Below are positions 2,838 through 21,514 of a stretch of 64,000 bases of DNA, piece by piece. Source of the stretch: Elusimicrobia bacterium RIFOXYA2_FULL_39_19 (GTDB lineage Bacteria > Elusimicrobiota > Endomicrobiia > CG1-02-37-114 > XYA2-FULL-39-19); the NCBI GenBank assembly GCA_001800285.1, contig MGVC01000005.1, positions 18,476-82,475 on the forward strand. Direction: 5' to 3'. Each line of letters starts with the position of its first letter. Within the stretch, counting starts at the first letter, position 1. The notes under the pieces were generated by a model. The model had not been told where the DNA came from. It did no database searches and saw only the letters and a list, made by a program, of their open reading frames with translations. The position numbers and the translations under genes were made by a program.

Positions 2838-2847
2838 TTATTCCTTT

Positions 2848-4026: not shown

Positions 4027-4040
4027 TTTGTTTTAGGGGT

Positions 4041-5498
4041 TCAGTAAAACAAATCCCGTTCTCCATTTTTTATCTGCGCCAGTTTATCTGTTACCTGCGC
4101 ACGCATTTTCTTATCTTCAATTTTGTTTAAATAATGGTTTATTAATTTATAGCCGGGTTTGTAGGCGCCGTTTTGTTTTGCAAAATCTTCCAGATATTCA
4201 GCAAAGGTCAGCAGGCCGTTTACCCGGCAGAATTTATGTATTTCACCTGGTTTGGACAGTTCCATGAAATGTTCACCGGTCCTGCCCAGCCGGTAACATG
4301 CCGTGCAGAAACTTGGCAGCAGTTTTTGCGGCAGAATGGATTTTATAACTTCGCTTAAAGAACGTTCATCACTTACTTCAAACTGCACGCCCTTTTTTTT
4401 GTTTCCGTAACCGCCCACTTCCGTAACACTGGCGGCGGACGCCTGGGAAATACCCAGTTTAAAAGCCTGTTTTCTTATCTGCGCGCTTTCCCGGGTGCTG
4501 ATAATCATGCCTGTGTAAGGGACAGCAAGGCGCAGTATGGCAATAAGTTTTAAAAAGTCATTATCTGCTACCGGATATTCCGGCTTATAAGTTACAGACG
4601 GCGCTGGCCGGAATCTGGGTACAGAAATAGTGTGCGGGCCGGTGCCGTGCTTTTTTTCCAGGTAATCTGCGTGCATAATAAGAGCCAGCACCTCAAAGCG
4701 CCAGTCATAAAGCCCGAATAAAACACCGAGGCCTATATCATCAAGGCCTGCTTTGAATGCTTTATCATACGCGGTTAACTGCCTTTGATAATCTGCTTTT
4801 AAGCCTGTATGCAGTTTTTCAAAAGTTTCTTTGTGGTAAGTTTCCTGAAAGAGCTGGTAGGTGCCTATTTTTGATTTTTTAAGTTTCCTGTAATTTTCTT
4901 CAGTGGTGGCGGCAATGTTTACGTTTATCCGGCGTATTGAACCCCTGGGTGTTTTTACAGAGTATATGGTTTCTATGGCTTTGGTTATGTAATCAATGGT
5001 ATTTTTTTCACTGTCTTCGCCAAGCTCCAGCAAGACTCTTTTGTGGCCTGCATTAATAAGGTACGTTACCTGGGCCTTAATTTCTTCAAAAGAAAGTTTT
5101 TTTCTTTTAAGCGCGGTATTTTCTTTATGAAAATTGCAATAATCGCAGTTATTAACGCAGTAATCGGAAATATACAGCGGGGCAAAAAATACAATTCTTT
5201 CGCCGTAAATTTCGTTTTTAATATGGTTTGCCGTTTCAAATAGCTTATTGATAAGTTTTTTGTTTTTTAGGTTTAGCAGTATGCCCGCTTCTTTAAGACT
5301 GAGGCCTTTTTTCTGACGGGCTTTTTTAAGTACTGCTAAAACAGCTTTATCAGCAGGACTTTGTGTCTGCTTTAAAATACCGTTTATAACCTGTTCATTT
5401 ATTATGTTCATAACATATTTTCCTGTTATTTTTCTGATCCTCTCCACTTGCAGATTGTGTCGCAATTTTGGAATGTAGTGGCCAAGCTTGCTTGGCAA
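4041..5498 (-). CDS. hydG: [FeFe]-hydrogenase-type radical SAM maturase HydG (ThiH-like tyrosine lyase)
   Basis: N-terminal CVNNCDYC (CX3CX2C) radical SAM motif. C-terminal CTACYRLGRTGEHFMELSKPGEIHKFC is an exact CX2CX22C second-cluster motif diagnostic of HydG. Size is 485 aa. Confidence 0.8.
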   Translation of the reverse strand: MPSKLGHYIPKLRHNLQVERIRKITGKYVMNIINEQVINGILKQTQSPADKAVLAVLKKARQKKGLSLKEAGILLNLKNKKLINKLFETANHIKNEIYGERIVFFAPLYISDYCVNNCDYCNFHKENTALKRKKLSFEEIKAQVTYLINAGHKRVLLELGEDSEKNTIDYITKAIETIYSVKTPRGSIRRINVNIAATTEENYRKLKKSKIGTYQLFQETYHKETFEKLHTGLKADYQRQLTAYDKAFKAGLDDIGLGVLFGLYDWRFEVLALIMHADYLEKKHGTGPHTISVPRFRPAPSVTYKPEYPVADNDFLKLIAILRLAVPYTGMIISTRESAQIRKQAFKLGISQASAASVTEVGGYGNKKKGVQFEVSDERSLSEVIKSILPQKLLPSFCTACYRLGRTGEHFMELSKPGEIHKFCRVNGLLTFAEYLEDFAKQNGAYKPGYKLINHYLNKIEDKKMRAQVTDKLAQIKNGERDLFY

Positions 5499-5648: not shown

Positions 5649-5999
5649 TTACTTATCGCCTTCTATGCTTTCAAGATATATGTCTTTCCCCGAAACCAGC
5701 TCAATATTTTTGCTTTTACATTTCGGGCACCCATCAAAAGTAATGGTGTCCGCAGTAATTTCTTCCCCGCAATTCAGGCATTTTGAGCGCAGGGGCTCTT
5801 TTATTACAACAAGTTTTGCTTTGTCTGCTATGGTGCCGGGAAATATATGATCTATAAAACTGTGGCGCAACAGGTCTTCCAGCACACCGCCGGCTTCGCC
5901 TAGCTTTACTGTTACCTTGGTTACTTTTTTGAGGTTATTGTGCTTGGCTTCTATTAATAGTTTTTCAAACAAGTCTCTTGCTATACCGGTTTCATGCAT
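5649..5999 (-). CDS. hypA: Hydrogenase nickel-incorporation protein HypA/HybF
   Basis: MHE start, 116 aa, C-terminal zinc motif CLNCGEE...CPKCKS (CxxC-Xn-CxxC), typical of HypA. Confidence 0.8.
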   Translation of the reverse strand: MHETGIARDLFEKLLIEAKHNNLKKVTKVTVKLGEAGGVLEDLLRHSFIDHIFPGTIADKAKLVVIKEPLRSKCLNCGEEITADTITFDGCPKCKSKNIELVSGKDIYLESIEGDK

Positions 6000-6426: not shown

Positions 6427-6981
6427 TTACTTTTCCTGCAATAAAATAACGTTGCAATTCTTGTCAAATTCCTTTAAAACTTCCTGGCTGACTCTTTTAT
6501 AAATCTCAAAATCTTCATACACTATGGCAAACACACCGCTTTCTGACGGCTCTGCATTAATTGAAAGAATAGTTTTACCGTCATTCCATTTCAGCGTGCC
6601 GTCATTTATGCAGGCAGGCCCATAAATTGCATTATAATAATCGCATATTTTTCCGTGAAACCCGCAAAATTCATCCATAGAATCATTATCATTTATGGAA
6701 TAAATTGTATGTATGCTGTACAACTGCCTGTCGTAAAATATCAGATTAACATATTTCACATATTTGTTATCAACGTCGTTTAACAGTACATTGCCCCAAT
6801 GTTTACTGCTTTCCATATCCTTTTTATAGTTGCCGGTAAAAACCAGGTTGCTGAAACTGGTACCCAGCGTGTAGCCGTAAAGAGTGCGTTTCAGGCTTGG
6901 GCTTGAACGAAGAAGGGCCTGAGCGTTTAACATACTCATAAAACCGGATAAAACAATTAAAAACATTATAATCTTTTTCAT
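6427..6981 (-). CDS. Secreted Cys-containing hypothetical protein (signal peptide)
   Basis: N-terminal MKKIIMFLIVLSGFMSMLNAQA signal peptide; 184 aa; several Cys (CGFHGKIC, CIND). Lies directly downstream of the PorV-like gene on the same strand. Confidence 0.55.
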   Translation of the reverse strand: MKKIIMFLIVLSGFMSMLNAQALLRSSPSLKRTLYGYTLGTSFSNLVFTGNYKKDMESSKHWGNVLLNDVDNKYVKYVNLIFYDRQLYSIHTIYSINDNDSMDEFCGFHGKICDYYNAIYGPACINDGTLKWNDGKTILSINAEPSESGVFAIVYEDFEIYKRVSQEVLKEFDKNCNVILLQEK

Positions 6982-7070: not shown

Positions 7071-8186
7071 TTATGGTGCAATATTATTTTCTGGCATGGG
7101 TAAACTTTCCAGCTTTTCTTCAGCCGGCACAACTTCCGGAACTGCTTGTATTTGTGGTTGCGTTTGGGTTTCCGGCGTTTTTTCTTCCTTTGCTTCTGGT
7201 ACAGTTGTCTGTACCAAATCTTTGCTTTTATTATATTTAAAAGGCATAGTCAGCGAAAGCCTGTAAGTATTTCCTAAATATCCGTACGGAGAAAAAGAGC
7301 AGTCCACATTTCCATAAGCACTGTTTATCCCAAACCCTGCAGACAACCCGCTGTCTGCCTGGTTGCGCCCGTTAAAACCAAGCCTTAGTTTTAGAATATG
7401 CAGTAAAGTATATTCAGCACCCATATTGATTATTAGCGGAACATCTTTTGAAAAGGTTGTATCAAAAGCAAAAAGCAGGTTTTGTTCAGGCAGAGTGTAT
7501 GCCGCGCCCAGTTTAAAATTTAACGGCAACTCTTCCTGCGTGCTGTAGAATTTTGCCCTTGTGCCAAGGTTTTGCAATACAGCTCCTGACTGAAAAACCT
7601 CATTGAATTTATACAAACATCCAATATCAATTGCTATTGCCTGTGTTTTTACAAAATCAATTCTTTCGTTTATATATTTCACGCTTAACCCGGCAGACAG
7701 CTTATCATTTAGTTGTTTTCCGCTGCCTAATGTCACCGCCATATCCTGTAAAAGATACTCACTCAGGCCATAGCCATTTCTATTTGAAATAGTAGTCCTT
7801 TGAATTGTGCCCCAGTCAACAATATTTATACTGCCGCCAAAACCAGTATTGGACACAAAGGCAAAATACCGCTGATTTATTTTCTGCAGCCAGAAAGTGT
7901 GCATAAAGTTTACTTCACTTCTTTTTATAACAGCCAAGCCGGCAGGATTATAGTACAAAGCATTAAAATCATCCGCTACGGCTGTAAAGGCCCCGCCCAT
8001 ACCTGCAGGCCTTATGCCTGTATCCAGCCTTAAAAAACCAAAAGGCGTAGTACCCGCACCTTCAGCAGACAAACGGATAGGCGCAGATAAAACACAGAAT
8101 ATACCGGCACAGAAAATCCAGAGCAGAACTCTGCTGTGTTTTCCTTTTAGAAATGAAAGTGTATTTTTTATAATTACCAGTTTCAT
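7071..8186 (-). CDS. PorV/PorQ (LptO)-family outer-membrane beta-barrel, T9SS cargo-shuttle-like
   Basis: Signal peptide, then GAGTTPFGFLRLDTGIRPAGMGGAFTAVADDFNALYYNPAGLA, a family-defining N-terminal motif of PorV/PorQ/UPF0164 barrels. Alternating beta-strand pattern with aromatic C-terminal region. Start ATG overlaps the giant gene's stop (ATGA at 8183-8186). Confidence 0.55.
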   Translation of the reverse strand: MKLVIIKNTLSFLKGKHSRVLLWIFCAGIFCVLSAPIRLSAEGAGTTPFGFLRLDTGIRPAGMGGAFTAVADDFNALYYNPAGLAVIKRSEVNFMHTFWLQKINQRYFAFVSNTGFGGSINIVDWGTIQRTTISNRNGYGLSEYLLQDMAVTLGSGKQLNDKLSAGLSVKYINERIDFVKTQAIAIDIGCLYKFNEVFQSGAVLQNLGTRAKFYSTQEELPLNFKLGAAYTLPEQNLLFAFDTTFSKDVPLIINMGAEYTLLHILKLRLGFNGRNQADSGLSAGFGINSAYGNVDCSFSPYGYLGNTYRLSLTMPFKYNKSKDLVQTTVPEAKEEKTPETQTQPQIQAVPEVVPAEEKLESLPMPENNIAP

Positions 8187-11100
8187 TTTATTATCCCCAG
8201 CTTAAATACTTTTCTCTCTCCCGTGCTTGACACAATAACCGCCAGATACCCGCCGCTTGCTAATTCAGAGCCGTTATTATTTTTTACATCCCAGTTAAAT
8301 GTACCGGATGATTCAATATAACTGTCAAAAACCAGTTCACCGCTTACCGTATAAATATATATTTTTACCGCTTCCGTAAGATTTTCAAATACTATACCGG
8401 ACTGCGAATTGCCCTGGCTGTAGGGAATACCGTTATCATCAGCACCGTCATAAGGCACATACGGGTTCGGATAAACCAACACATTATCAAGGTTATTTGA
8501 AGCAGCTGCAAATATACCAAAAAGGCTGAAATGGCCTACTTGTATAGATGCCGTATTATTAATTTTGTCTACTGTTGTTTCCGAATCCTTTTTCCAAATA
8601 CGGGATGATTCATCATAATAAAGGATTTTTATATTTTCTTCCCGCATATCCGTATCATCAATTATTCCGTCATTATCTTCATCTGCGTAAGCTATAATTA
8701 TAGTTACATTTTTCAATAAGGTTTTCTGCCCGCTTGCCAATTCAATACTTCTGAACATTCCCGCGGATTTATATTTCCTGTCTGATGACGGAATTGAAAG
8801 CGGGTTAATGGCTACTTTTACCAAATCAAAAGAACCGGAAAGAGCCCCCTCCGGGATAATAATTTCGGTAAAATGTTTTTTATTAATATCAGCTAACTTA
8901 ATGCTGTTTTCTACATTGTTATATATTTTCTGTGTTTTTTCCGGGACCCCATTTTGTATTTTTTCTTCCATATCAGGGCTTATTCTGTCAATGACTACAT
9001 TAACCGTTTCCGGATTATTGTCATAATTTCCTGTCTTATCATAAGCTACACACCTTAACTGATAATTCCCCTGCAAGAAATCAGATTCATTGCTTACATC
9101 CCAAAAATAGTTATAAGGGTATGTTGCATCCGGATTGGTAAACAACGAACCAGTAGAATAAATATTATGCCATTCATCCTCAGAAGCCTTCCTGTACTGG
9201 AAATAAACATACCTGATATCAGAACTCTCACCTGATGTTATCTCGCTGGTCAACGTTATCCTGTTGCCGCTTATTTTCTCGCCTTCTTTAGGCGCTGTTA
9301 TTTCAACCTTTGGCAAATCCACATAGTTTGATATATTTGTTATCCTGAATTCTGAAGACTTATAAGGAAATGTATTGTTTTTATCTGAAACCATAGTCTG
9401 GGGCACAATAGTCAAACCGCTAAACTCTTCAAGCCGTATACCGGTATAATCATTTTCTGTTGAATTCATTGAAAGATCTGTATAACCCACATCTCCTACA
9501 ATATATAGTTTTACTTCAGCGGTTGATATATAAAGACCGGTTGATTCTATTGATAGACTTGCCATTCCTGAAACGAAATTCATGTTTGGATTGGCTCCTG
9601 TTGAATGTGGAATGGATGAAATAAATACATCAGTTGTTGCATCAAATTTTCCATCACCATACGGAAAAGCAGCACTGGTTGCCTCTTTCCAGATACTCAG
9701 GCACGAAAAATCACCCTGGCCCTTTCCCGGAATAAGCGATGTTTCTACCGTACCTGTTTGTTTAAGCGTTATATTGGTAAGTAAAGCATGGTTAGTATTA
9801 GTTTTCAGCCGTAATAACATAAGCGGAACATTTTTGCTTCCATATTTCGTATATACAGGGGCATAATTTTCTGATTTTACAATCAGCCCTATAGGGGTTA
9901 CCGGGAGCAGGCTGGTTTTACAGTAATCAAAACTTGTTGAATTGCCTAACTGTACGCCGGTATTGGTTTCAAGTACCAATAATGGAGAAACATCGTGCGG
10001 CAATCTTAACTTTATCCAGCCGCTGTCTGGAATTTTCAGGCCTATTGTATTTCCAGCAACCGCATTATCACCCATATCGTAAGCTATGAAATATGTTTGA
10101 TTTGATGGATTAAGTTTCTGTATGTTTGTCAGATAAATCATTTTTGTTTTGCTTAAATCATTGCTTAAATCAAACATATCAACTTTTTTAATTAAATCAC
10201 CGGAATTTAATTGTTTTCTTACGGTACCGTACTTCCCGCGTTCAACTATCCTTAAAAACGGTTTCGGCCCTGTTGGCGTAATTGTAGTTCCCGCCAGGGA
10301 ATACCTCATAATCTCATCGCCTGCTTTTACAAGCAGCTGCTGTTGCCCGGTAGGGAAAGTTCCTGTAAGAGTAATCGTTGACTCAACTATCAAATCAAAA
10401 GGCAGTGGTGTATATATTGAGATATAATTATAGTATACCCCATCGGAACATAACGAACTTATTTTTGTTTCTGCCTCTGAGATGCACTGGTCATCGGCGT
10501 CAAGAATGTTGTTGTAGTTTGCGTCTCTAAATATTTTTATATACTTCACATCAGAGTTTCTTCCCTCCGGTTTTGTCTGGTCCAAAGGGCCGCCTGTGCC
10601 GGTACGCTCAACCTGAATAGCGTCCCAGTTACAATTGGATTTATCGGTACGCAGTTTTAGCCTCATCATTTCTACGTTTGACTGGGACTGAAATGCACCG
10701 CTTGCAAAATGCACGTAATAAGCGCTGTCTGATACAGTAGCAGATACAGCAACCTGAACTTCCTTTATTTCTGCTGTCTGAGTTATAAACGGAGCTGTAG
10801 GCCAGAGAAATTCTACACCATCCGGAACCTGTACAGTAAAATATGTTTTGTCCAGAATACTGGCTCCTACTGTTTTACTTATTTGGGCAAATTGGCTGAT
10901 ATCATAAGTTAAATAGTATGTCTGTAGTGTAGCGGTTATGGTTCTGGCGTCATAATAGTTGTCTTCTGTTTTAAGCAACAGCGTGGCAGCCTTTTCAGTG
11001 AACGTATCACTGCCATAAGTTATTAGGCCGCAAGGCTGGCTGTTTATCATAACTGTTGATTCAAACACGCTGTATTCAGAAGTAGATGTAATTACTTTCC

Positions 11101-14100
11101 AGATTTTAATCTTACTCACATCAGCATCTACTCCTGTCCCGGTTAAATTAACTTTTATGCTTTCCCATAAAGCGGTATTTCTATTTGTTTTCATTGACAA
11201 TTGTATTACTGGTACATTTTCTGCATAACGTTCTACAGTACTCATTAATTCTGATGAGGGGGTTATATACACAGTATCAACGGTTGCTACAATCGGCATA
11301 TTAGCAGTTTTTATAGGAAAGGCAGGTATCTCACCTAATCCAATAGGCACATAAGTTGATACTCTGTGCCGCATCTCTTCTGACGGATGATTTACGCCTA
11401 TTTTGTCCTCTCCTGTTATTTCTGCGCCAATTATTTCATTTTGCCAGGAAATAAGCGGATGAGAGAATTTAGCCGACGGGCTGACATCATAAGTTATGAA
11501 ATATGCCGTTGGCGTGGTAGTAACAAGTATATAACCCCTGTTAATTGCCGGGTCATTTAAGTAAAGGCGGCCTCTGGAATTATCATAAACGCCTGAACCA
11601 ACAAGCGTGTCAGCAGTTACAATTCCCCTGTATTCAGGTGAAGCAAATCTATCCAGCCTGCTGTTTCCATTATCATCACGGTAAACTTTTATATTTAGTA
11701 AATCACTGTCTGCACCGAATAATAAGTATGACGGCGTGGTACGGGTTATGGTAATGGTACCCATTTCCACCTGAAAACCGTCAGCCCATAAATCAAGTTT
11801 CTCTACTGCAAAGTTTTTCACTCCCTGAGTTACCTGCACGCCAAAAACTACACCCGATGAATGACTGGCAGCAAAACTGCCCAGAACACCACGGGTAATG
11901 CCTGTAATAGAATTTGCTGTTTTTCCCGTGTATTTTATAATTTCACTTTCTATAACTGCATAACCGCTTGCAGGAATTGCCAGTGTTGGCGTAGGACGGC
12001 CCAGGGAATCATTTGAAAACAGATAAAGGACATCTGCGCCTGCACTTAAATTTCCACTTAACCGCGGAACCTCGTAGGTTGAAAGTGTGCCTGTTTCTTT
12101 TGGGTCATCATCAGAAAAAATCGGGGCTGATTTTACAAATATAGTCCTGGGTGATGATGCTATTGTTTTTAAAGTGCTTTTCCAGGGAAGGCCGATGTCA
12201 TCCAGATTATCGGGTTCTGATATGAAATCATCTTCGGTTTGAACGAGATTATCTTCATCTGTCGGGAAGCTTTCTGCTGTAAGTCTTACACCAAGGTTTT
12301 TTGGGTCACCGGTTCTGGGGTTAGTGGTTAATGCAGTTTCGCTGATATCGTAAGTTATAAAGTATCTTTGCGATTTTGCTACTCCGGCTCTGGCGGCAGT
12401 AATTATTTCCTGTACCTTACTTGAATTAAATCTGATAAGGGTTGCTAACGCATCGCCGGCATTACTGAATGTTCCAGAACCTACCAAAACATCATAGTCT
12501 GTGCCTGCATAAAAATAAGGGGTTACCGGACTTTTATTTAACATTCTGTCATTATTTGCGTCATACCAGACTTTAACTACCGGTACTTCCTCCTGCACGG
12601 CGCCGCCATCGTAAGAGGCTGTACCGGTGGAATATATTCTGATTGCATACCACAAAGCTTCAGACAAATCCGTTTCCAGGGTAAACTGCGCCATAACATT
12701 ATCTACTGAACCCTGAACTAAATATTGTGTATAAATATAATCAGTTGGTTTCACCAATACATCATCAGGATATTCTTTAACCTGTGACACGTAAGATTCA
12801 GTCCACCCTGTTGCCGCCCATTCAGTGCCAATCCACTGGTTATTTCTAGGGCTTCTTAAACCTACCTGTGCCTGCACATTGCCCATATAATCCGGAGAAT
12901 TGATGGTGAAGTAACCGGTTGATGGAATTTCCACGCCCAGTTTAAGCGACGCATCTACCGTACAAACAGGGCTGTAATCAAAGGTAATAAAATAATTTTT
13001 AGGTGTTTGCCGGATTTCCTGCACCCCACTAACGTCACCTACTATATCCAGCCGTGCCGGGCCAGACACAATAGCTCCGCTGGTATGGGATTTAGCGGTA
13101 GTTTTATCCTGCCCGCGGACAACACCTGTAAACAAATTATTATCTTCATCAACCCCGGTATAAGTAACTATTTCAAGTTTTGACGGGTCCCCGTTATCAT
13201 CAATAATTAATTTACCCGGCGCCTTAGGCACAGAACAAAATGGCGGGAAGAAAACCCCAATATCAGCTACCTCAATTACACTGGCAGACTCATTAATACT
13301 TTCAGCTAATTCTGATACAGGAAACTCCATAAGTGAAAATTGCGGGTTCTGGTCAACCACCATCGAATCGGTAACTTCGAACATTCCGTCATTGTTGCTG
13401 TCATACCACAGCTGTATTTTATCTACATCTGTAGGCAGGCTGAGTGTTCCTTCCGGCACGCCTGATGTGGCATTTCTGTATATAGACCTATCAAGTTTCA
13501 GTCCGCCCCACAGGCCGGTTCTCTGAACTGTTGCCATGGTAAGTTTCATTACCGTTATGTTTGCATCACCCTGGGTTACTACCCCGGTTACAGTAAAATT
13601 CACGCTGGATACACTGGTTTCCTGTTTGTTTACGTTATAAACATTCAGTTCATCAACTGTGGCTGTCACTACAACTTTGGTAGATTCAATAGAGGCATAA
13701 GACTGCATAGCACCTTCTAATAAGGTTATGCCGTTTATCTGGGCACCGTGCGTATAACCGGGAGTAGCGGAATTTTCAATTTTGTAGGTTATAAAAAAGT
13801 ATCTGCTGGTACAATCAATTAACTGAGGTGTTGAAAGCATACACTGGGCGCTTCTGTCTGTAAACGGTACCCAGTTTGTCAACGCATCATCGCCTCCGGG
13901 TTCTAAAGCTCCGTTGGGGTTTGAACCAGCATCTATCCTGCCGTCATTCGGGCTGGAATCTTTTCCGTCCATATATATTTTTACGCCTACTATGTCATAA
14001 TCCTGGCCGGTGCCTGTTCTGCCTACTTTTATTTCGCTTATCGCCCCCTGAAACATAGGGGCGCTGAATGCTACCCTTAACATTCCAATATCAGATTCAC

Positions 14101-17100
14101 CCTGCTGCATGTAGGAGTAAGTAATAGGCTGTGTGGTGCCTTCAAGTTGGTAATAAGCGGCAATATCCGTTAACTGCGCATAAACTTTCGGCGGTGATTT
14201 TTCTACTGCCCAGGTGGTGGTAACTATTTCAAAATTGGCCTGGGACACACCAATAGTTCCTGAAGTTTGTATAGACTGGTAACTCTGCAACCGTAACCCA
14301 AAATATGTACCGGTAGTTGCGCTGGTGGCTATGCGCACTGCAATGAAATACGTTTTAGGTAAAGTATTTACTGAAACTTCTGGTTTTACGCTTAAATTTC
14401 TGAAGTACCAGGCGTCAGTGCCCGCATCATACTCAGCATCACAAAGTTTAGTGTCTGTTGGTTGGCCGCCACTTACAAGTTCCGGGTCAAAGTAATAGTT
14501 GCCGCTTGCGTCATAGTAAAGACTCATCTTACTAATACTGCTGGAAGGCGTATTGCCAAATTTTTCTACTTTTATCTGTTCCAGTTTTTCTGTAAGATTG
14601 GCTTCCACAGGCAGGGTTACCATAGTAAGTCCGGCCATACCAAACGGCTGGAAGTTTTCTACAATATCCCCGTCACCCTGATACACTTTCTTAGAAATAA
14701 CTCTTGATAGATAATTAGAACCTCTCAACAAATTTTCCGGGTCTAATATCGGTGTTACTTTTATGCCTGAAGTTACCAGGTTCGCATCTGAATGTGCTGT
14801 TTCAACTCTTGTGCTGTCATTAGTCCAGCCGTACACTACACCATCCGCAGGATAATCCAGCGCCTGAGTAACAGGAGATGCATAATGAGTAGCGCTGATT
14901 TTTAGTGATTCCTGCATCTGGTTGATTACCTGCAACCCCTGCCAGACACCGCTGTCACTTTCTGTATAAGCATAATAGGTTGCACTGCCGGGCATAGCTC
15001 TTAGTGTTACTGCGGTAGTGGAGCCGGTATGTGCAAACTTTATTATACCTTTATAATACTGACCGTTGGTGCTATCGCCGGATGCCACATTACCAAACCG
15101 GTCTCTGGCTTTTACGGTAACCGTGCCGTTTGAATTTACCGGCAATGGATTTGTTAAGGGATAACTGTGGTGAATTGTAAAAAACCTTGCAGGAGCAGGA
15201 GTGATATACTGGTTCTGTGTTGCAGATACTAACTGTATTGAACCGCAGGTTCCCTCAGCTCTCAATGTACTGGTACCGGCTTTTGTATCAAAGAAATATA
15301 TGGAATGCTCTGAAGAACCCGGGGGTATAATACCCGGCAGGAAACCGCCCTCGCAAATACTGGGCCAGTCAGCGCTAAGCATTAAATTTTTTAAAGGGTT
15401 TTCACCGGCACGGGCAGAAGTTGAATTTGTACAGGTATAAACTATGCTTGTAGCATCAGAAGAAATAGTAACATTATCTGACTGGTCCCTTAACTGGATA
15501 GTTATCACTGTAACGGTTTGAACACGGTTTGAATAAGAGCTTAATGGAACAGGTAAAACGGCTGATGAAAACGGATTGTAGCCTTGCACGGAATATGTAG
15601 AAACAACACTTCCTAAATTTCCGGAGCCGGTATACGCAATGGTTGTACCAGCAATTAATCTTCTTGATTCCGTTATAAAAACAAAATGATGGGGGTTCCC
15701 CGCAACTACTGAATAAGTCTGCACAGCTACAGCCCAATCTGTCTTTGCCGGGTTCTGCGCAGTTATTTGAAAATTCCCCAGATTGGTATCTATCATGTAA
15801 AAACTGGTGGTGTCATCACCTATATTTAACGTAACAATATCAACCGCAGGTTTTGCTACCCACCCGGAAGTAATATTTGGCGAAGCAAACCTCACATTCC
15901 CTGTACCGGTAGAATTAAGGTCAAAGATACTCATAACTTCTTCACCTGTAATTACCGGTGACGGGTTGGAAAACTTGTCCTGTGTCTGCAGTAAAAAAGC
16001 TGATGATGTAGTACCGGCCGCCAATATCTGATGAGATGATATTATGGCCAGTTTCTTTATTGGTGATGCCGTTATCGGTACGTATTGGCCGGAGCCCGGT
16101 GTTTCCCAACTTCCGCTTGAAGCTTTTACATGAGGCATGGTGGAAGCAGCAATATTATATGGCGGATAAGTTTTTGATGCTTTTGTATCTGCATACCAGA
16201 ACTGGGTGGCATATTGGCCGGCTGAAATTGAAGCCGTTGAGGTGTGCATCCACGGTGAAGATGTAAGTGAGAAGGAATAATTTCTGCCGTATTCCGTAGT
16301 GGCAATAGTATCCACTTCGCTTTCAAACGTTAACCTGTGCAAATAATCTATGCGCAATGAATTACCTGCCCCGGAATCACTCTGCAGGTTCATGGTAGTG
16401 TCTACGTTTACAGCTTTCGGGTTGCCGTAAGTATCCTGTGTTTCTATTTCAAGCACCTGCAAGCTATTCTGGTTGTTATAAACTATACCCGCCAGTAACG
16501 GCAGTGTGGTTGAAGGAATAACATCAAAACCTACCTGAGTTATAGCGCCCGGGTTTACATTAAATGTTGTTGAACCAACATAGATACCATACTCAACAGA
16601 AGCTGTCCATTTACCTATTGACGGACGCGCAGGCAGAGCGGCGGTAGCCGTGCCCTGAGAACCGTCTTCGCCTGCAGGCCATGAAGCATACATATCTGAA
16701 TACCTGAATGATGCCTGTGAATTGGCTGCAGGTACCGGCCATACTGCCGCGGACCATATAGGTATAGCTACATCATACATGCTCAGCATAGTATCGGTAG
16801 TTTTATTCCAATATTTCTTCTGTGAATTTAGTACAGAAGGTGAATCAGTTTTCAGCTGGGTGCCGATAGAAAGAGAAACTATGTTTGTTTCACCCGTCGG
16901 GTTATTCCAGTAATCGCGTTTTTCAAAAGTAAATACGGTAGATTTTATGTTACCCGCAGAAGCTTCAATGTCTGACGGTGTAGTTACAAACTGGAAGCGG
17001 TATAAATCACCGCCGGTAGTCATAATGTTTACAGATTTACCTGTAATGGTTGCACCCGCAGCGGTAGATACCTGCACCTTGGCATAATGGCCTCCGGTAG

Positions 17101-20100
17101 TGGATACCTCATAGTATAATTCTTTGCCTAGGCCGCCCACTTCACCATTGCTGTCGGTTGTAGTAGAAGTAATTACATTGCCGGAAGCATCTTTTATAGT
17201 TCCTGAAGAACCAAATACATCCACTACACTTAATACCGCGGAAATATTTGAACTTGAAACCTGGTTTTCATAAGAGTCGGCAATAAACGCTTTTACCTGC
17301 TGACGGTTAGGCACGCCGCCGGAGATGCCCGCTTTTACATAGATCGGGTCGGTCCACGGGCTTGGTATAGCAAATGCAAACTTGCTGGGGTCTCCCGGCC
17401 TTACTTCTATTACCGGTCTGTTTGAATATCCTGACCTATTGGCATCTATCAGGGAATCTGTGCTCTGGCGCCAGTTTATCCAGCGGGTACCAGCCTTTTT
17501 TAGTTGAATGGTAAATAAGTGTGAACCGGCATCTGCGTCAGTAAACACATAGTGTTCTCCGCCGCTGCCGGGTAGAGGTTCTGGATTCTGCAGTGAATTA
17601 TCAAAGTCCGTAGGAGCAATTTCTGCCAAGAACTGCACTTCACCGGTGTATCTGGTGCTTCCGGTAGAACATATATTGTGGTATCTGTCTTTTACATTTA
17701 TTCTTACATTGTAATCTGAACCAGCATAAGCCCAGGTAGAGCCGCGCACAGGGTCAATATAGCTTGTACCCTGCATGTAGTAGGCGGCGTCCGGCCATAT
17801 TCTTATCTGGCTGGATTCTTTAGAAGTATATTTTACAGCCGCGGTTGACCAGTCAACCGACACGCAGGTCCAGGAAGAAGAAGCAGTCAACGGCCTTACG
17901 CTGAAGGCTCTTGAACCGAAAGCCAAGCACTGTATGGTTGGCTCAGAATCCTGATAATCCCAGGTGGTTACCGTGCAGGAAGGCATATCTACACCTGACA
18001 TAATCCTGTTATACCAGATATCTGTTAATACAACATCTATGTTAAAGGCATCCCCGGCTGTATGCACAGTTGGCTGGGTATCGGTCCTGCCGTAAGGAGC
18101 AATGTTCCATTTTCCGGGAACGTGGGTTTCACCCGGCACCACCACAAGTAAAAATGCCGGCGAAGATGGATTTACTGTAAACTGCCTGCTGCTGACATCT
18201 GTAATATATCTCGGGTCAGAACCATCAACATCCTTGGTCCAGAGCATATGCCAGGTAGCAGCAGTTTTGAGCTGTATTTGAAAAGTATTGCTGGCGCTTA
18301 TGTCGCCGAGTGGTGACGTGGATGAATTGGCATCATAAGGGTCATTGGTTTCTACCGTCACTTCAGGCATGGTTATTCCGGGTAGTGACGGAAATATTCC
18401 TTTATTATAAGTATTGTAGTAGTTATCTACTAAGTTTACTGTTACTTCAAACACAGTACCGGCAGTCTGGGTTACCGGAGAACCTGTTTTACCGTTAGCA
18501 GTGCTAACATTTAAACCCCATGCCGGCGTTTCACCAGGAAGTATTATCTGGAGATGGTTCGGAGTGCCCGGTAGTACAGTGAAAGTGGATACGGTATAAT
18601 CCGGTGCACTGTTTGGATATTTTGTATAAGTACCATAAAGTTCTTCCGCAACTGCATAGTGGTAAGTGGCGGCACGTTTTAAACCAGTAGTGAAACTGGC
18701 TGTCTTGTAACCCGGGTCTGTACCGGTAATTGTTATCTGAGCTGGTTCTACATTATAAGGATCCGTAGGAGTGTATAGAACAATGGTTCCCTCTGCACCG
18801 GATACAATATTGAAGTTGCTGTCTGTAATGGCCACAGTAACATCAAATGGGGCACCAGCGGTTTGTTGTGATGGACTGCCTGTTTTACCATAAGGTGAGT
18901 TCATGTCAAAGTTTTGGCCTGGTAAAAGAACCAGAAGTTTTGAAGCTGTGTTGCTAACAACCGGGACCTTTGAGCTGGGCTGGGAATTAACCATAATTCC
19001 GGGATATCCCTCACCTTCCACCCAGCTAAATGCCGACATTCTTATACGCCAGCCGGTATTGCTGGATGTTGAAAAAACCCATTTTTCAGAATCATCTAAA
19101 ATATATTGTCCGTTTGAAACCCATATACTTCTCCCAGTTACCTGCGGGTCGTTAGGGTCACCGTCTGCTCCATCAGACATAAGTGTTAGAGTAGGATTTT
19201 CATCAGTCTGGTTATAACATTGGTCCAGGCATAAAACAGTTGTTTTAAAACCCACACCAGCAACCTGTGCTGTTGGGTTGGAAGCTTCCGTTTTTCCCGG
19301 TTGAGAGCCGGTAACTTTACCGTCAACATGGGTTTCACCCGGTACCAATATCTGAATTCTGTAGGGAACATTTGTAGTAATGGCTATGCTCTGGGTATAA
19401 TCATATTTATAATTACTGCAATAATCTGTAGTTGCTGTGATGATAGTATTTTTCTTTGTTACAAGCGTAATGCCAAATGTCGTAGTCCCGGAAAAAAGAG
19501 TTTTTGTACTGGGGTGCGTGTCATATAAATCATCGGTAATTATGCTGACATTTATTCCGGTAGTAGTTACTGAATTGTAATAGTCATCACATGCATCTAC
19601 GGTTACATTAAACGATTCTCCCGCTTTATGGCTGGTTGGATAATTATTGGACATTCTGCCTCTTGTAGAAATATTACCGGCATCCGGTAATTCCCCTGGA
19701 GCAAGAATTCTCAATCTTTTAGCACTTCCTGGAATTATGTTAACAATATTTGAATCATATGTACCCAGGCTTCCGGTTGCCCTAACTGTCCAGGTGGAAG
19801 CAGTATTCATCATTACGTTATTCCACACATTCTGTCCCATAGTTAAGCCCTGGCTTCTGGAATAACTACAATAAGGGTCTGTTACCGTTACAGACACCCC
19901 TCCCATTACAGCAGTGGAACATAAGTTATAATAATTATCCGTAACACGCACAGTTACAGGAAACACTACACCAGCTGTCTGAAAACTAACGCTATAATTT
20001 TTTCCTCCGGTTCCGTCACCAATTGGCTGCTGGGTTACATTTTCTCCATAAGGAGGCTTGCCGGGAGCAGGCACTTCATTCGGCAAGATTACATGGTAAC

Positions 20101-20917
20101 GTGTAACTAAATTCGGATAAACCCTTATTTCAGAACTTGTACCGGTTGATAACCAGATATCGTTGCCATTATAATTAAGAGCTTCTGTTGGATATGCTTT
20201 TACATAATGCGTTGCATAACCTGTCAGACCTGCCATTTCTGCATTAAAAACAGTTATGGTTGTTATACTTGAACCATTAATCAAACAAACATAATTTGTT
20301 TTTGATCCATATTGATCGGTAGATTCAACATACACTATGGGGTTTGCGTCAGAAATAGTATTCCATTGTAAATCTGTGGCTTTTATTGTTATGGCAAATG
20401 GTTGGCCTGCAGTAAATCTTGAAATCGGTGTTCCTGATTTTCCAGTTGAAGAACCCGGATTTTGTGTTTCGCCGGGAACTAAAATAAGCAACTTTGATGG
20501 ATCGGAAAGCGGGTAGGCTGTTGTATTATTTGAAACACCTGAAAATAATTCCAAGGGTCCTGAAGAGACCCAGATTCTAAAATAGTATAACTTATCGCTT
20601 TGAAGGCCTGTTATTACGTAATTCTGTCTGTTCCCGGAATTAACAGAACCTGTTGATAATACCAGATTTCCGCTTGTGCCCGTACTCCAGGCAATACTTT
20701 CAAAAGTTGATTTTTGAATTTCATACCTGCTCCCAACGGGTATAGTAAATGGGCCTGGATAGGTCCAAATTAAACGGACCTCATAAGAGTTCTGACCGGT
20801 AACAGCCGAAAGATCAGTTACCGCTAAAGATTGAGCAAATATGTTTTGAATACTTATAACAAGTATAAGAATACAAAACATAATTCTGATATTTATCACT
20901 TTATTCTTAAACATCAT
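8183..20917 (-). CDS. Giant (4244 aa) secreted repeat protein with T9SS C-terminal sorting domain (adhesin/surface-layer-like)
   Basis: Single uninterrupted 12.7-kb ORF. N-terminal signal peptide MMFKNKVINIRIMFCILILVISIQNIFAQS. Roughly 8 tandem ~110-aa repeats containing L-x-I-L-x-PGE-T...GKTG...QTAG-x-F-x-VTV-x-A-x-D-x-(W/Y)-N. Later modules with recurring [YF][FY]I[TA]YD(I/V)S motif. C-terminus VYPNPY...KIYIYTVSGELVFDS...GTFNWDVKNNNGSELASGGYLAVIVSSTGERKVFKLGIIK matches the Por_Secre_tail/T9SS CTD pattern. Ser/Thr/Gly/Asn/Tyr-rich. Confidence 0.85.
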   Translation of the reverse strand: MMFKNKVINIRIMFCILILVISIQNIFAQSLAVTDLSAVTGQNSYEVRLIWTYPGPFTIPVGSRYEIQKSTFESIAWSTGTSGNLVLSTGSVNSGNRQNYVITGLQSDKLYYFRIWVSSGPLELFSGVSNNTTAYPLSDPSKLLILVPGETQNPGSSTGKSGTPISRFTAGQPFAITIKATDLQWNTISDANPIVYVESTDQYGSKTNYVCLINGSSITTITVFNAEMAGLTGYATHYVKAYPTEALNYNGNDIWLSTGTSSEIRVYPNLVTRYHVILPNEVPAPGKPPYGENVTQQPIGDGTGGKNYSVSFQTAGVVFPVTVRVTDNYYNLCSTAVMGGVSVTVTDPYCSYSRSQGLTMGQNVWNNVMMNTASTWTVRATGSLGTYDSNIVNIIPGSAKRLRILAPGELPDAGNISTRGRMSNNYPTSHKAGESFNVTVDACDDYYNSVTTTGINVSIITDDLYDTHPSTKTLFSGTTTFGITLVTKKNTIITATTDYCSNYKYDYTQSIAITTNVPYRIQILVPGETHVDGKVTGSQPGKTEASNPTAQVAGVGFKTTVLCLDQCYNQTDENPTLTLMSDGADGDPNDPQVTGRSIWVSNGQYILDDSEKWVFSTSSNTGWRIRMSAFSWVEGEGYPGIMVNSQPSSKVPVVSNTASKLLVLLPGQNFDMNSPYGKTGSPSQQTAGAPFDVTVAITDSNFNIVSGAEGTIVLYTPTDPYNVEPAQITITGTDPGYKTASFTTGLKRAATYHYAVAEELYGTYTKYPNSAPDYTVSTFTVLPGTPNHLQIILPGETPAWGLNVSTANGKTGSPVTQTAGTVFEVTVNLVDNYYNTYNKGIFPSLPGITMPEVTVETNDPYDANSSTSPLGDISASNTFQIQLKTAATWHMLWTKDVDGSDPRYITDVSSRQFTVNPSSPAFLLVVVPGETHVPGKWNIAPYGRTDTQPTVHTAGDAFNIDVVLTDIWYNRIMSGVDMPSCTVTTWDYQDSEPTIQCLAFGSRAFSVRPLTASSSWTCVSVDWSTAAVKYTSKESSQIRIWPDAAYYMQGTSYIDPVRGSTWAYAGSDYNVRINVKDRYHNICSTGSTRYTGEVQFLAEIAPTDFDNSLQNPEPLPGSGGEHYVFTDADAGSHLFTIQLKKAGTRWINWRQSTDSLIDANRSGYSNRPVIEVRPGDPSKFAFAIPSPWTDPIYVKAGISGGVPNRQQVKAFIADSYENQVSSSNISAVLSVVDVFGSSGTIKDASGNVITSTTTDSNGEVGGLGKELYYEVSTTGGHYAKVQVSTAAGATITGKSVNIMTTGGDLYRFQFVTTPSDIEASAGNIKSTVFTFEKRDYWNNPTGETNIVSLSIGTQLKTDSPSVLNSQKKYWNKTTDTMLSMYDVAIPIWSAAVWPVPAANSQASFRYSDMYASWPAGEDGSQGTATAALPARPSIGKWTASVEYGIYVGSTTFNVNPGAITQVGFDVIPSTTLPLLAGIVYNNQNSLQVLEIETQDTYGNPKAVNVDTTMNLQSDSGAGNSLRIDYLHRLTFESEVDTIATTEYGRNYSFSLTSSPWMHTSTASISAGQYATQFWYADTKASKTYPPYNIAASTMPHVKASSGSWETPGSGQYVPITASPIKKLAIISSHQILAAGTTSSAFLLQTQDKFSNPSPVITGEEVMSIFDLNSTGTGNVRFASPNITSGWVAKPAVDIVTLNIGDDTTSFYMIDTNLGNFQITAQNPAKTDWAVAVQTYSVVAGNPHHFVFITESRRLIAGTTIAYTGSGNLGSVVSTYSVQGYNPFSSAVLPVPLSSYSNRVQTVTVITIQLRDQSDNVTISSDATSIVYTCTNSTSARAGENPLKNLMLSADWPSICEGGFLPGIIPPGSSEHSIYFFDTKAGTSTLRAEGTCGSIQLVSATQNQYITPAPARFFTIHHSYPLTNPLPVNSNGTVTVKARDRFGNVASGDSTNGQYYKGIIKFAHTGSTTAVTLRAMPGSATYYAYTESDSGVWQGLQVINQMQESLKISATHYASPVTQALDYPADGVVYGWTNDSTRVETAHSDANLVTSGIKVTPILDPENLLRGSNYLSRVISKKVYQGDGDIVENFQPFGMAGLTMVTLPVEANLTEKLEQIKVEKFGNTPSSSISKMSLYYDASGNYYFDPELVSGGQPTDTKLCDAEYDAGTDAWYFRNLSVKPEVSVNTLPKTYFIAVRIATSATTGTYFGLRLQSYQSIQTSGTIGVSQANFEIVTTTWAVEKSPPKVYAQLTDIAAYYQLEGTTQPITYSYMQQGESDIGMLRVAFSAPMFQGAISEIKVGRTGTGQDYDIVGVKIYMDGKDSSPNDGRIDAGSNPNGALEPGGDDALTNWVPFTDRSAQCMLSTPQLIDCTSRYFFITYKIENSATPGYTHGAQINGITLLEGAMQSYASIESTKVVVTATVDELNVYNVNKQETSVSSVNFTVTGVVTQGDANITVMKLTMATVQRTGLWGGLKLDRSIYRNATSGVPEGTLSLPTDVDKIQLWYDSNNDGMFEVTDSMVVDQNPQFSLMEFPVSELAESINESASVIEVADIGVFFPPFCSVPKAPGKLIIDDNGDPSKLEIVTYTGVDEDNNLFTGVVRGQDKTTAKSHTSGAIVSGPARLDIVGDVSGVQEIRQTPKNYFITFDYSPVCTVDASLKLGVEIPSTGYFTINSPDYMGNVQAQVGLRSPRNNQWIGTEWAATGWTESYVSQVKEYPDDVLVKPTDYIYTQYLVQGSVDNVMAQFTLETDLSEALWYAIRIYSTGTASYDGGAVQEEVPVVKVWYDANNDRMLNKSPVTPYFYAGTDYDVLVGSGTFSNAGDALATLIRFNSSKVQEIITAARAGVAKSQRYFITYDISETALTTNPRTGDPKNLGVRLTAESFPTDEDNLVQTEDDFISEPDNLDDIGLPWKSTLKTIASSPRTIFVKSAPIFSDDDPKETGTLSTYEVPRLSGNLSAGADVLYLFSNDSLGRPTPTLAIPASGYAVIESEIIKYTGKTANSITGITRGVLGSFAASHSSGVVFGVQVTQGVKNFAVEKLDLWADGFQVEMGTITITRTTPSYLLFGADSDLLNIKVYRDDNGNSRLDRFASPEYRGIVTADTLVGSGVYDNSRGRLYLNDPAINRGYILVTTTPTAYFITYDVSPSAKFSHPLISWQNEIIGAEITGEDKIGVNHPSEEMRHRVSTYVPIGLGEIPAFPIKTANMPIVATVDTVYITPSSELMSTVERYAENVPVIQLSMKTNRNTALWESIKVNLTGTGVDADVSKIKIWKVITSTSEYSVFESTVMINSQPCGLITYGSDTFTEKAATLLLKTEDNYYDARTITATLQTYYLTYDISQFAQISKTVGASILDKTYFTVQVPDGVEFLWPTAPFITQTAEIKEVQVAVSATVSDSAYYVHFASGAFQSQSNVEMMRLKLRTDKSNCNWDAIQVERTGTGGPLDQTKPEGRNSDVKYIKIFRDANYNNILDADDQCISEAETKISSLCSDGVYYNYISIYTPLPFDLIVESTITLTGTFPTGQQQLLVKAGDEIMRYSLAGTTITPTGPKPFLRIVERGKYGTVRKQLNSGDLIKKVDMFDLSNDLSKTKMIYLTNIQKLNPSNQTYFIAYDMGDNAVAGNTIGLKIPDSGWIKLRLPHDVSPLLVLETNTGVQLGNSTSFDYCKTSLLPVTPIGLIVKSENYAPVYTKYGSKNVPLMLLRLKTNTNHALLTNITLKQTGTVETSLIPGKGQGDFSCLSIWKEATSAAFPYGDGKFDATTDVFISSIPHSTGANPNMNFVSGMASLSIESTGLYISTAEVKLYIVGDVGYTDLSMNSTENDYTGIRLEEFSGLTIVPQTMVSDKNNTFPYKSSEFRITNISNYVDLPKVEITAPKEGEKISGNRITLTSEITSGESSDIRYVYFQYRKASEDEWHNIYSTGSLFTNPDATYPYNYFWDVSNESDFLQGNYQLRCVAYDKTGNYDNNPETVNVVIDRISPDMEEKIQNGVPEKTQKIYNNVENSIKLADINKKHFTEIIIPEGALSGSFDLVKVAINPLSIPSSDRKYKSAGMFRSIELASGQKTLLKNVTIIIAYADEDNDGIIDDTDMREENIKILYYDESSRIWKKDSETTVDKINNTASIQVGHFSLFGIFAAASNNLDNVLVYPNPYVPYDGADDNGIPYSQGNSQSGIVFENLTEAVKIYIYTVSGELVFDSYIESSGTFNWDVKNNNGSELASGGYLAVIVSSTGERKVFKLGIIK

Positions 20918-21129
20918 TTTTCCTCAAATACCTACCCCGTGCAGTTTTCATCCTGATCTATCCTTTTACAATAGGATATCTGGATATTGCTCATAAAAAA
21001 AAACAATTTGAAAACTATCGCAGGGGTAAAGTGAAAACGATATCCTGTGAACAAAGATGTTTGGAATACAGGGTAAACGTCACACATGCATCCATCCGCG
21101 GGCGATCCCGTGAAAGTCTGCTGCCGTTT

Positions 21130-21166
21130 AAAAAACCGAGTGAAAGCATTGGAAAATGCCACTCGG
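21130..21166 (-). terminator. Intrinsic terminator hairpin plus U-tract in leader of giant gene (possible riboswitch expression platform, or 3' terminator of the hydrogenase operon)
   Basis: Minus-strand CCGAGTG-GCATT-TTCC-AATGC-TTT-CACTCGG followed by TTTTTT (7-bp + 5-bp stems with bulge). Confidence 0.5.
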
Positions 21167-21238
21167 TTGAGTTTACGACACTGTAACCTTACTGCGGTTT
21201 TTGGCGGCCTGGCGGTCATTGGACATTCCTCTTTTTTA

Positions 21239-21330
21239 GGCGTCTGCGCTTCAACTCCCTAGAACCGTTGGAGTCAGGCGTCCTTTAGACCCATAGCTTT
21301 GCGCCCGTCGGTTTCCCGGCGTTTGCTTTT
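21239..21330 (-). promoter_or_regulatory. Candidate c-di-GMP-I (GEMM) riboswitch aptamer upstream of giant T9SS protein gene
   Basis: Minus-strand AAGCAAAC-GCCGG-GAAA-CCGAC-GGGCGCAAAGCT-ATGGGTCTAAAGG... aligns with Vc2 GEMM core GGGCAAAC-CAUUC-GAAA-GAGUGG-GACGCAAAGCC (GCAAAC, 5-bp P-stem with GAAA tetraloop, then CGCAAAGC junction). Tetraloop-receptor-like TATGG/CTAAAGG follows. A -35 TTGACA lies just upstream and a terminator hairpin ~70 nt downstream. Confidence 0.4.
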
Positions 21331-21514
21331 ATCAATTTTTGTCAGTTTTGGTTTTGTAGAGCCAAGGTAATTTGTGCTTTTTGTCACACCCTGATATGTA
21401 TATAGTATGGAAAGATAGTAAAGTCAAGGCTTATTTACATAAACTTTACCGATGATTACTGCGGATTTGGGGTTTTAGGATTTGAGGTGACTAAAATTTC
21501 TGCTATTTGGTGTG

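Follow-up and report, generated by a model that had tools for sequence, protein, structure and literature searches.

A giant protein and a PorV/PorQ-family barrel encoded by overlapping genes in an Elusimicrobia genome: a probable cell-surface display cassette

We analysed a stretch of 64,000 nucleotides (nt) from Elusimicrobia bacterium RIFOXYA2_FULL_39_19 (assembly GCA_001800285.1, contig MGVC01000005.1, positions 18,476 to 82,475), hereafter called the window, and consider here two adjacent minus-strand genes in it, one encoding a giant protein and the other an outer-membrane beta-barrel. In our judgement the two genes probably form a translationally coupled cell-surface display cassette, in which the barrel carries the giant protein as its cognate partner and anchors it permanently. 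The cassette family to which the pair belongs is real, widespread and unstudied, and it comes with testable predictions; the concept has close precedents.

The gene pair and its conservation

The genes and the elements at their junction are as follows.

7071..8186, minus strand: PorV/PorQ-family outer-membrane barrel gene, 371 amino acids (aa), ATG start; identified by matches to NF033709 and a PorV profile
8183..20917, minus strand: gene of the giant cargo, whose 4,244 aa (about 462 kDa) start with a Sec signal peptide at the N-terminus; from the list of open reading frames (ORFs) and the translation
8183..8186, minus strand: ATGA start/stop overlap of the giant gene and the barrel gene; read from the sequence
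8194..8198, minus strand: GGGGA, a Shine-Dalgarno-like element of putative function, 7 nt upstream of the barrel ATG and within the giant gene

As an earlier note on this DNA had described, both ORFs are present, and the barrel ATG (8186-8184 on the minus strand) overlaps the TGA of the giant gene (8185-8183). Inspection of the sequence and its translation gave no other plausible start codon ahead of the barrel signal peptide. The same organism's hypothetical protein A2252_08045 in GenBank has a sequence identical to that of the barrel. A lone 4-nt gene overlap is frequent in compact genomes and is weak evidence by itself. The same overlap recurs at independent homologous junctions. For what the earlier note called 'co-translated', the proper term is 'translationally coupled'.

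Relatives of the barrel were collected by scanning one genome per GTDB species, which yielded more than 550 relatives; the best 80 loci were kept and, together with three loci from an exact protein look-up, provide the 97 barrel occurrences to which the pairing counts refer. The hosts are mostly Elusimicrobia, and the remainder include Zixibacteria, Ignavibacteria, Calditrichia, KSB1, Chlorobiales, Fermentibacteria, Krumholzibacteria, Lindowbacteria and Saganbacteria. For 62/97 barrels, the ORF directly upstream lies on the same strand and carries, at its extreme C-terminus, a C-terminal domain (CTD) homologous to that of the giant protein (48 of these 62 pairings are found by single-sequence phmmer alone), and a further 7 of the 97 are the second barrel of a tandem pair behind such an ORF. 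The synteny comparison that had been suggested for related genomes therefore finds the pairing conserved, and several of the barrels that remain unpaired are located at contig ends or frameshifts.

The shortest upstream CTD ORFs have about 500 aa and the longest more than 3,300 aa. At 61 junctions, the two genes overlap by 4 nt in 22 cases (21 ATGA and 1 GTGA), overlap by 1 nt in one case and are separated by a gap of 0-20 nt in 20 cases. Searching from the cargo side also leads to barrels: in locus L084, a UPF0164/PorV barrel begins 2 nt after the gene of a papain-like protein that has this C-terminus (P0122), and an 896-aa BNR protein (L086) precedes barrel P0108. Clustering of all ORFs of 84 loci revealed no third conserved gene family, such as a translocon or a PorE-like protein.

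The two partners also diverge together. The distance matrices of CTDs and barrels for the 62 pairs are correlated (Mantel r=0.70), and 0/2,000 permutations reach this r. Paralogous modules within one metagenome-assembled genome (MAG), CAYWAR, show the same pattern: loci L005 and L008 share 67% identity in the CTD and 64% in the barrel, while either of them shares 24-26% and 31-33%, respectively, with L028. Two or three cargo-barrel modules occur in several single MAGs or contigs (L005/L008/L028, L051, L027 and L010), and the presence of several co-diverging modules per MAG argues against one general shuttle.

Some loci depart from the simple two-gene arrangement. In L016, L018, L038, L042, L059, L067 and L081, mostly from Zixibacteria, two PorV/PorQ-family barrels stand in tandem behind a CTD protein of about 500 aa. 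In L031, L037, L048, L053, L065, L076, L080 and others, which come from Ignavibacteria, Calditrichia, KSB1 and Chlorobiales of the Fibrobacteres-Chlorobi-Bacteroidetes (FCB) group, a conserved non-PorU CTD family of 1,100-1,400 aa precedes the barrel, and several of these loci have a conserved ORF of about 930 aa ahead of the CTD protein, which makes a three-gene unit. We had considered the 1,100-1,200-aa upstream proteins of Ignavibacteria, Calditrichia and KSB1 as candidates for PorU and rejected them, since they match neither the C25 peptidase nor T9SS_sortase. Finally, in L034 (2-2365, barrel at 2348), L010, L047 and L013, the cargo and barrel frames overlap by more than 4 nt or look fused or frameshifted; either errors of assembly or genuine fusions may be the cause.

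The barrel and the C-terminal domain of its cargo

The barrel protein is divided into the following parts.

8064..8186, minus strand: signal peptide, aa 1-41, ending in APIRLSA before EG at the putative cleavage site; the n-region is unusually long (about 17 aa)
7917..8051, minus strand: N-terminal hatch/plug segment, aa 46-90, with an invariant NPAG; short helices, predicted local distance difference test (pLDDT) score >95
7242..7916, minus strand: 14-stranded beta-barrel, aa 91-315; pLDDT mostly >94 in the AlphaFold2 (AF2) model
7074..7241, minus strand: disordered C-terminal tail rich in Pro/Glu/Thr/Gln, aa 316-371 (56 aa), pLDDT 47-62

Against NCBIfam NF033709, the model of the PorV/PorQ family, the barrel scores 163.1 bits (cutoff 90, E=1.2e-47), and the match is full length, extending over barrel aa 46-315 and model positions 1-325 of 326. 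The equivalog models for type IX secretion system (T9SS) components give lower values: 107.2 bits for PorQ (NF033711, cutoff 220), which is the best among them, 70.4 bits for PorV (NF033710, cutoff 250) and 41 bits for PorV2 (NF052325, cutoff 325). Because every equivalog cutoff is missed, the barrel is a member of the PorV/PorQ family and not an orthologue of PorV, PorQ or PorV2. In the databases, many of its homologues already bear the label 'PorV/PorQ family protein'.

Of the two Pfam families named in the earlier note for a hidden Markov model search, UPF0164 (PF03687) was passed with 40.9 bits against a gathering cutoff of 21.4 and PorV (PF19572) was missed with 19.9 bits against a gathering score of 27. 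UPF0164 is thus the sole Pfam family over threshold, and its alignment is limited to barrel aa 47-122, the hatch segment, and to model positions 39-117 of 325. Toluene_X (PF03349, the FadL/TodX family) reaches 26.5 bits, below its cutoff of 29.7, in short stretches only; these, like the UPF0164 match, fall on the hatch segment.

A profile of the barrel family built from 71 homologues matches PorV of F. johnsoniae (6h3i_F) with E=4.5e-42 and TodX with E=6.5e-6. The AF2 model of the barrel (mdb5a06671534, overall pLDDT 86.5) has 14 strands and a hatch in a FadL-like arrangement, with helices at aa 2-34 in the signal-peptide region. A Foldseek search with this model places PorV chain 8gl6_F at the top (1.4e-14), followed by PorV chain 6h3i_F and then by FadL; 8gl6_F and 6h3i_F are PorV chains of the T9SS translocon, substrate-bound and empty. 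Profile, model and NF033709 score all bear out the identification of the protein as a PorV/PorQ-like beta-barrel in the earlier note.

These data also bear on whether the barrel is instead a FadL/TodX-type transporter of hydrophobic compounds that is unrelated to the giant gene, the overlap being incidental operon packing. FadL-fold structures do match the model with E of about 1e-8 to 1e-10, there is the weak sub-threshold match to Toluene_X, and the NPA(G) hatch motif is common to FadL. However, in E-value the profile favours PorV over TodX by about 36 orders of magnitude, and a transporter of this kind leaves the conserved, co-diverging CTD pairing unexplained. We regard this explanation as scarcely credible, and the case that the earlier note had named as refuting its proposal, an unrelated porin or FadL protein, is not what was found.

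The motif quoted in the earlier note, GFLRLDTGIRPAGMGGAFTAVADDFNALYYNPAGLA, is present as barrel residues 50-85. The NPAG that we find invariant across the alignment of the 71 homologues (N80-P81-A82-G83) is the NPA hatch motif of the FadL fold, with which the FadL NPA-mutant entries among the Foldseek matches agree. The motif is a family mark in this sense, but it marks the FadL/PorV superfamily and its hatch in general and is not specific to PorV.

The C-terminal tail of the barrel is presumably periplasmic, because the number of strands in the model is even. At the position of the tail, homologues P0005-P0034, P0055 and P0115 have TPR, OmpA_C (peptidoglycan-binding) or FN3 extensions, which suggests that the tail is a periplasmic tether, and it may be in contact with the cell wall.

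On the side of the giant protein, the evidence lies at the C-terminus.

8186..9310, minus strand: conserved C-terminal cassette, aa 3870-4244, composed of a Big_7 immunoglobulin-like (Ig) domain, a ZU5-like domain and the CTD
8186..8476, minus strand: T9SS-type CTD, aa 4148-4244, from VYPNP to FKLGIIK; identified by family profile and AF2

When compared by blastp with the upstream ORFs of other loci, the giant protein shows homology to other barrel-linked cargos in this C-terminal cassette alone; in the nearest Elusimicrobia loci the similarity covers the last ~375 aa, in distant ones the last 100-150 aa. Its Big_7 domain is recognized with 24.7 bits (cutoff 24.1). The size of the family was measured by searching representatives of protein clusters (P0124-P0272 among those listed): of the representatives of 50%-identity clusters, the 374-aa cassette matches 277 with E<=1e-30 and 1,384 with E<=1e-10. 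Among the matches listed, it is located at the extreme C-terminus in 150/150, in proteins of 300-5,913 aa. The passengers ahead of it are unrelated to each other and include a papain-like C1 peptidase (P0122), a PQQ-like beta-propeller (L050) and BNR/sortilin repeats (L086). By these comparisons the unit of Ig domain, ZU5-like domain and CTD is a portable module.

Scores of the giant protein's own CTD against single models are weak (18 bits for Pfam FlgD_ig and E=6e-11 for the CTD part of the NCBIfam PorZ model). A clear match is given by a CTD family profile, built from 51 homologous C-termini and searched against PDB. This profile matches the CTD of P. gingivalis PorZ (5m11, residues 664-758, up to the last residue) with E=3.4e-13, the CTD of PorU (6za2) with E=1.5e-6, ordinary cleaved cargo CTDs (8glk_D) with E of about 1e-3 and FlgD Ig domains with E of about 5e-4 to 2e-3. 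Taken one by one, 48/51 members match the CTD part of the PorZ model, 41/51 PorU, 38/51 the type A model TIGR04183 (counted at E<=0.01) and 2/51 the type B model TIGR04131, and two of the homologous CTDs (L066 and L050) score over the TIGR04183 cutoff. The presence of a CTD in the giant protein, as stated in the earlier note, is thus confirmed by the profile. The domain is best described, on the basis of these matches, as T9SS type A-like or FlgD_ig-like, and closest to the uncleaved CTDs of PorZ and PorU.

For the last 400 aa, the AF2 model was calculated from a shallow alignment of 4 sequences (overall pLDDT 56.8) and is usable for the CTD only. In it, the CTD forms seven beta-strands at aa 303-398 of the 400-aa model, with pLDDT 79-91 across aa 330-400; six of the strands lie within aa 4148-4244 and one just ahead of the VYPNP motif. 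T9SS CTDs likewise form seven strands (PMC10994853). In all loci, the CTD stops 1-3 residues short of the stop codon. An equation of the conserved Lys of the last strand with the PorV-contacting Lys of RemZ was dropped, because the two are not alignable and PorZ has Arg there.

Both partners can now be set against the possibility that the barrel is the general PorV (or PorQ) of the organism, a housekeeping component of the T9SS that adjoins one cargo gene by chance. The barrel does fall within the PorV/PorQ family, with PorV as its closest solved structure, and porU and porV are adjacent in P. gingivalis. Nevertheless, its scores are far below the equivalog cutoffs (PorV 70 of 250, PorQ 107 of 220 and PorV2 41 of 325), the distinct modules of a single MAG or contig have barrels that each co-diverge with their own CTD, and the upstream partners in the loci are neither PorU nor PorZ. 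We hold this possibility to be very unlikely.

Proposed mechanism and related systems

In the mechanism that we propose for the display cassette, the giant protein would first be exported by the Sec system. Its CTD would then dock on the extracellular loops of the cognate barrel, by analogy with T9SS CTDs, which attach to extracellular loops of PorV, their carrier (PMC10994853), and it would stay bound and uncleaved, in the way that the PorZ CTD stays on PorQ and the PorU CTD on PorV. The barrel would carry this one cargo and anchor it permanently to the outer membrane, and the start/stop overlap would keep the amounts of both products matched. The 462-kDa passenger would probably cross the outer membrane through an SprA-like T9SS translocon encoded elsewhere, since a plugged 14-strand barrel is unlikely to be a channel.

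The earlier note had spoken of a dedicated shuttle for a single giant cargo and of a cargo-specific secretion/anchoring module. The conserved pairing and the co-divergence support both descriptions as far as dedication is concerned; however, an anchor fits better than a shuttle, because the CTD has its greatest similarity to the uncleaved CTDs of PorZ and PorU, and the module is not a one-off but a member of a large cassette family.

Several points weigh against this proposal. The contact between CTD and barrel is one that we infer from sequence comparison, and the case for this family as a whole is computational. Co-divergence of CTD and barrel could result from co-inheritance of adjacent genes and not from binding specificity, although paralogous modules within a single MAG co-diverge too. 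Orphan barrels of the family without an adjacent cargo exist, for example in Endomicrobium (L085), and the giant protein's own CTD has no TIGR04183 match at E<=0.1 (cutoff 23 bits). For the outer-membrane step, SprA, GldKLMN and PorU are absent from the window, the rest of which contains housekeeping and hydrogenase genes only, and none of them is conserved in the 20-kb loci. No paper linking the T9SS with Elusimicrobia or Elusimicrobiota was found in a search that left most subscription journals outside, and this step is accordingly unsupported; the literature searched on PorV-like cargo pairs outside Bacteroidota likewise gave nothing relevant.

The last of these points can also be read in favour of an autonomous system, in which the barrel and the CTD cassette would export and anchor the cargo independently of the T9SS, as a type V-like or two-partner system or a 'proto-T9SS' carrier, without SprA or GldLM. 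Besides the lack of T9SS core genes and of papers just mentioned, it is favoured by the conservation of only two genes in the neighbourhood and by the distribution of the cassette, which is abundant in Elusimicrobia and also occurs in MAGs of Lindowbacteria and Saganbacteria, outside the FCB group. On the other hand, the hatch in the model fills the lumen of the 14-strand barrel, as in FadL and PorV, and would leave it too narrow as a protein channel; CTDs homologous to this one act through SprA; and the same cassette is found in FCB phyla (Ignavibacteria, Calditrichia, Zixibacteria and KSB1). The T9SS is to be expected in FCB phyla. On balance, we think an autonomous system unlikely.

The proposed carrier-anchor can be compared with several known systems. 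Knowledge of the T9SS comes almost wholly from Bacteroidota, in which a general PorV serves type A CTDs and dedicated PorP/SprF barrels serve type B CTDs. The attachment complexes PorQ-PorZ and PorV-PorU of the P. gingivalis T9SS share with our pair a 14-strand barrel of the PorV/PorQ family and, on our proposal, a surface protein anchored by a retained CTD. In addition, the CTDs of PorZ and PorU are the nearest to the CTD family here, and PorQ gives the best equivalog score of the barrel. They differ in that the giant cargo is neither PorZ nor PorU and has no beta-propeller or C25 peptidase part, so that only the CTD aligns, and in that the barrel is below the PorQ and PorV cutoffs. Moreover, the genes here overlap in an operon, the passengers are variable, several modules per genome are possible and the host belongs to Elusimicrobia, whereas porQ and porZ are not known to be adjacent in P. 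gingivalis.

The type B systems of Bacteroidota (SprF-SprB and PorP-PG1035) have a matching logic, as does PorQ-PorZ. In these, a dedicated adjacent PorP/SprF barrel is needed for, and anchors, one very large surface protein; cargos such as SprB remain bound to it, and PorP/SprF barrels with type B CTDs are established as cognate carrier-anchors for single giant cargos (PMC9143113, PMC12618676). Genetic linkage and cognate specificity appear to go together here as well, to judge from adjacency and co-divergence, but the barrel belongs to the PorV/PorQ family NF033709 and the CTD is type A-like (TIGR04183 38/51, TIGR04131 2/51). PorV itself, the general type A carrier (F. johnsoniae, 6h3i and 8gl6), is the closest in solved structure and in sequence, and the model of CTD-loop binding derives from it (PMC10994853). 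All type A cargos use PorV and are released from it, whereas here there is one barrel per cargo and the CTD resembles the non-released type.

The UPF0164/FadL-like outer-membrane proteins of Treponema resemble the barrel in that UPF0164 is its sole Pfam match over threshold, but the match is restricted to the hatch segment (aa 47-122), and we know of no cargo pairing for the Treponema proteins. Reviews already propose cognate PorV-like barrels. What sets the cassette apart is that a barrel of the PorV/PorQ family goes with a type A-like CTD, that the genes overlap and the passengers vary, and that the hosts lie mostly outside Bacteroidota; the literature searched contained no account of such an operonic cassette or of how it is distributed in Elusimicrobia.

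The interest of the arrangement is that a PorV/PorQ-family barrel is firmly tied, through gene overlap and joint divergence, to one cargo with a type A-like CTD. It is also common, the cargo cassette being represented in hundreds of 50%-identity clusters, and its hosts include phyla for which no T9SS is described in the literature searched. It bears on how uncultured lineages hold giant surface proteins at the outer membrane, on the origin of the PorQ-PorZ and PorV-PorU anchor pairs and on whether CTD-barrel docking works outside a full T9SS. As a practical rule of annotation, a cassette of Ig, ZU5-like (HFS) and CTD domains followed by a PorV/PorQ-family barrel would denote a surface-display operon, and this rule would label many giant 'hypothetical' proteins.

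The ZU5-like domain, the passenger and neighbouring genes

Between Big_7 and the CTD of the giant protein lies a domain with a candidate cleavage site.

8498..8905, minus strand: ZU5-like domain, aa ~4005-4140, about 135 aa, between Big_7 and the CTD; it ends in H4129-F-S4131-x-F
8525..8533, minus strand: H-F-S tripeptide, aa 4129-4131, candidate cis-autoproteolysis site

HFS is the self-cleavage motif of the ZU5 domains in PIDD and of Nup98. In the giant protein, H4129-F-S4131 is located 17 residues ahead of the VYPNP start of the CTD. When 20 divergent members of the ZU5-like family are aligned, H-[F/L]-S-x-F comprises the sole invariant or nearly invariant residues. H-[F/L]-[S/T] is found about 117 aa from the C-terminus in 141/149 cluster representatives (HFS 113, HFT 16, HLS 11 and HLT 1), and H[FL]Sx[FYW] in 25/63 locus cargos. 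Pfam ZU5 (PF00791) matches 2/20 family members, with a best E of 4.4e-9, and does not match the giant protein itself. Foldseek gives matches to ankyrin ZU5A-ZU5B from a model of low confidence (pLDDT 57), and a search of PDB with the family profile found no significant solved relative by sequence.

We hypothesize that this motif is a self-cleavage site like those of PIDD, Nup98 and GPS domains. The passenger would then be cut from the barrel-bound stub and yet be held non-covalently, and the HFS site constitutes a directly testable prediction of self-cleavage. The domain resembles the autoproteolytic ZU5, GPS and Nup98 domains in having H-F-S at the end of a putative beta-sandwich domain and in the ZU5 matches of the two members mentioned. 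Earlier work predicted ZU5 autopeptidase domains both in polymorphic toxins and in large surface proteins of bacteria (Zhang et al. 2012, PMC3482391). In polymorphic toxins they are N-terminal, whereas the domain here directly precedes a C-terminal T9SS-type CTD and is tied to a PorV-like barrel.

Combined with self-cleavage, the autonomous reading can be extended. Elusimicrobia and other non-FCB phyla would then have a self-sufficient secretion and display system without the T9SS translocon or motor, an ancestral 'carrier plus CTD' module that was later the source of attachment and shuttle components of the T9SS (PorV, PorQ and the CTDs of PorU and PorZ), and ZU5-type cleavage between F and S of H-F-S would leave the passenger non-covalently on the barrel-bound stub. 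We consider this an improbable scenario. If it were true, the cleaved giant passenger on its stub would be a bacterial counterpart of GAIN/GPS-cleaved adhesion receptors.

The remainder of the giant protein, the passenger, has no match to the curated families of Pfam and NCBIfam, all matches being confined to the C-terminus. Its recognizable features are the following.

20834..20917, minus strand: predicted Sec signal peptide, MMFKNKVINIRIMFCILILVISIQNIFA, with QS after the putative cleavage site; read from the translation
17843..20575, minus strand: passenger repeat zone 1, aa ~115-1025, with about seven Ig-like 'PGE...QTAG' repeats of about 130 aa each
9668..14035, minus strand: passenger repeat zone 2, aa ~2295-3750, a second family of internal repeats

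Both zones were detected by comparing segments of the protein against itself using phmmer, with E down to 6e-13 in zone 1. Self-comparison of the giant protein by blastp gave no off-diagonal matches, and the repeats are visible by segment phmmer only.

Upstream of the giant gene, about 600 nt (20918-21514 of the window) are apparently non-coding. They separate the giant gene from an operon of group-4 hydrogenase/NuoI-like genes and likely contain promoter or other regulatory sequences. The 95-aa ORF in this region looks spurious; it has no family match and is not conserved at homologous loci, and was left out of the module. Downstream, an ORF of 184 aa with a signal peptide (6427-6981, minus strand) begins 89 nt after the barrel gene. 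It has no NCBIfam match beyond a sub-threshold one to a Na+/H+ antiporter, is not conserved beside homologous barrels and is probably outside the module.

Elsewhere in the window, the ORF of the HydE radical-SAM maturase (2848-4026, minus strand) matches HypC/HupF chaperones in its N-terminal ~75 aa (41.9 bits, cutoff 48) and may be a HypC-HydE fusion. It adjoins HydG (4041-5498) and HypA (5649-5999).

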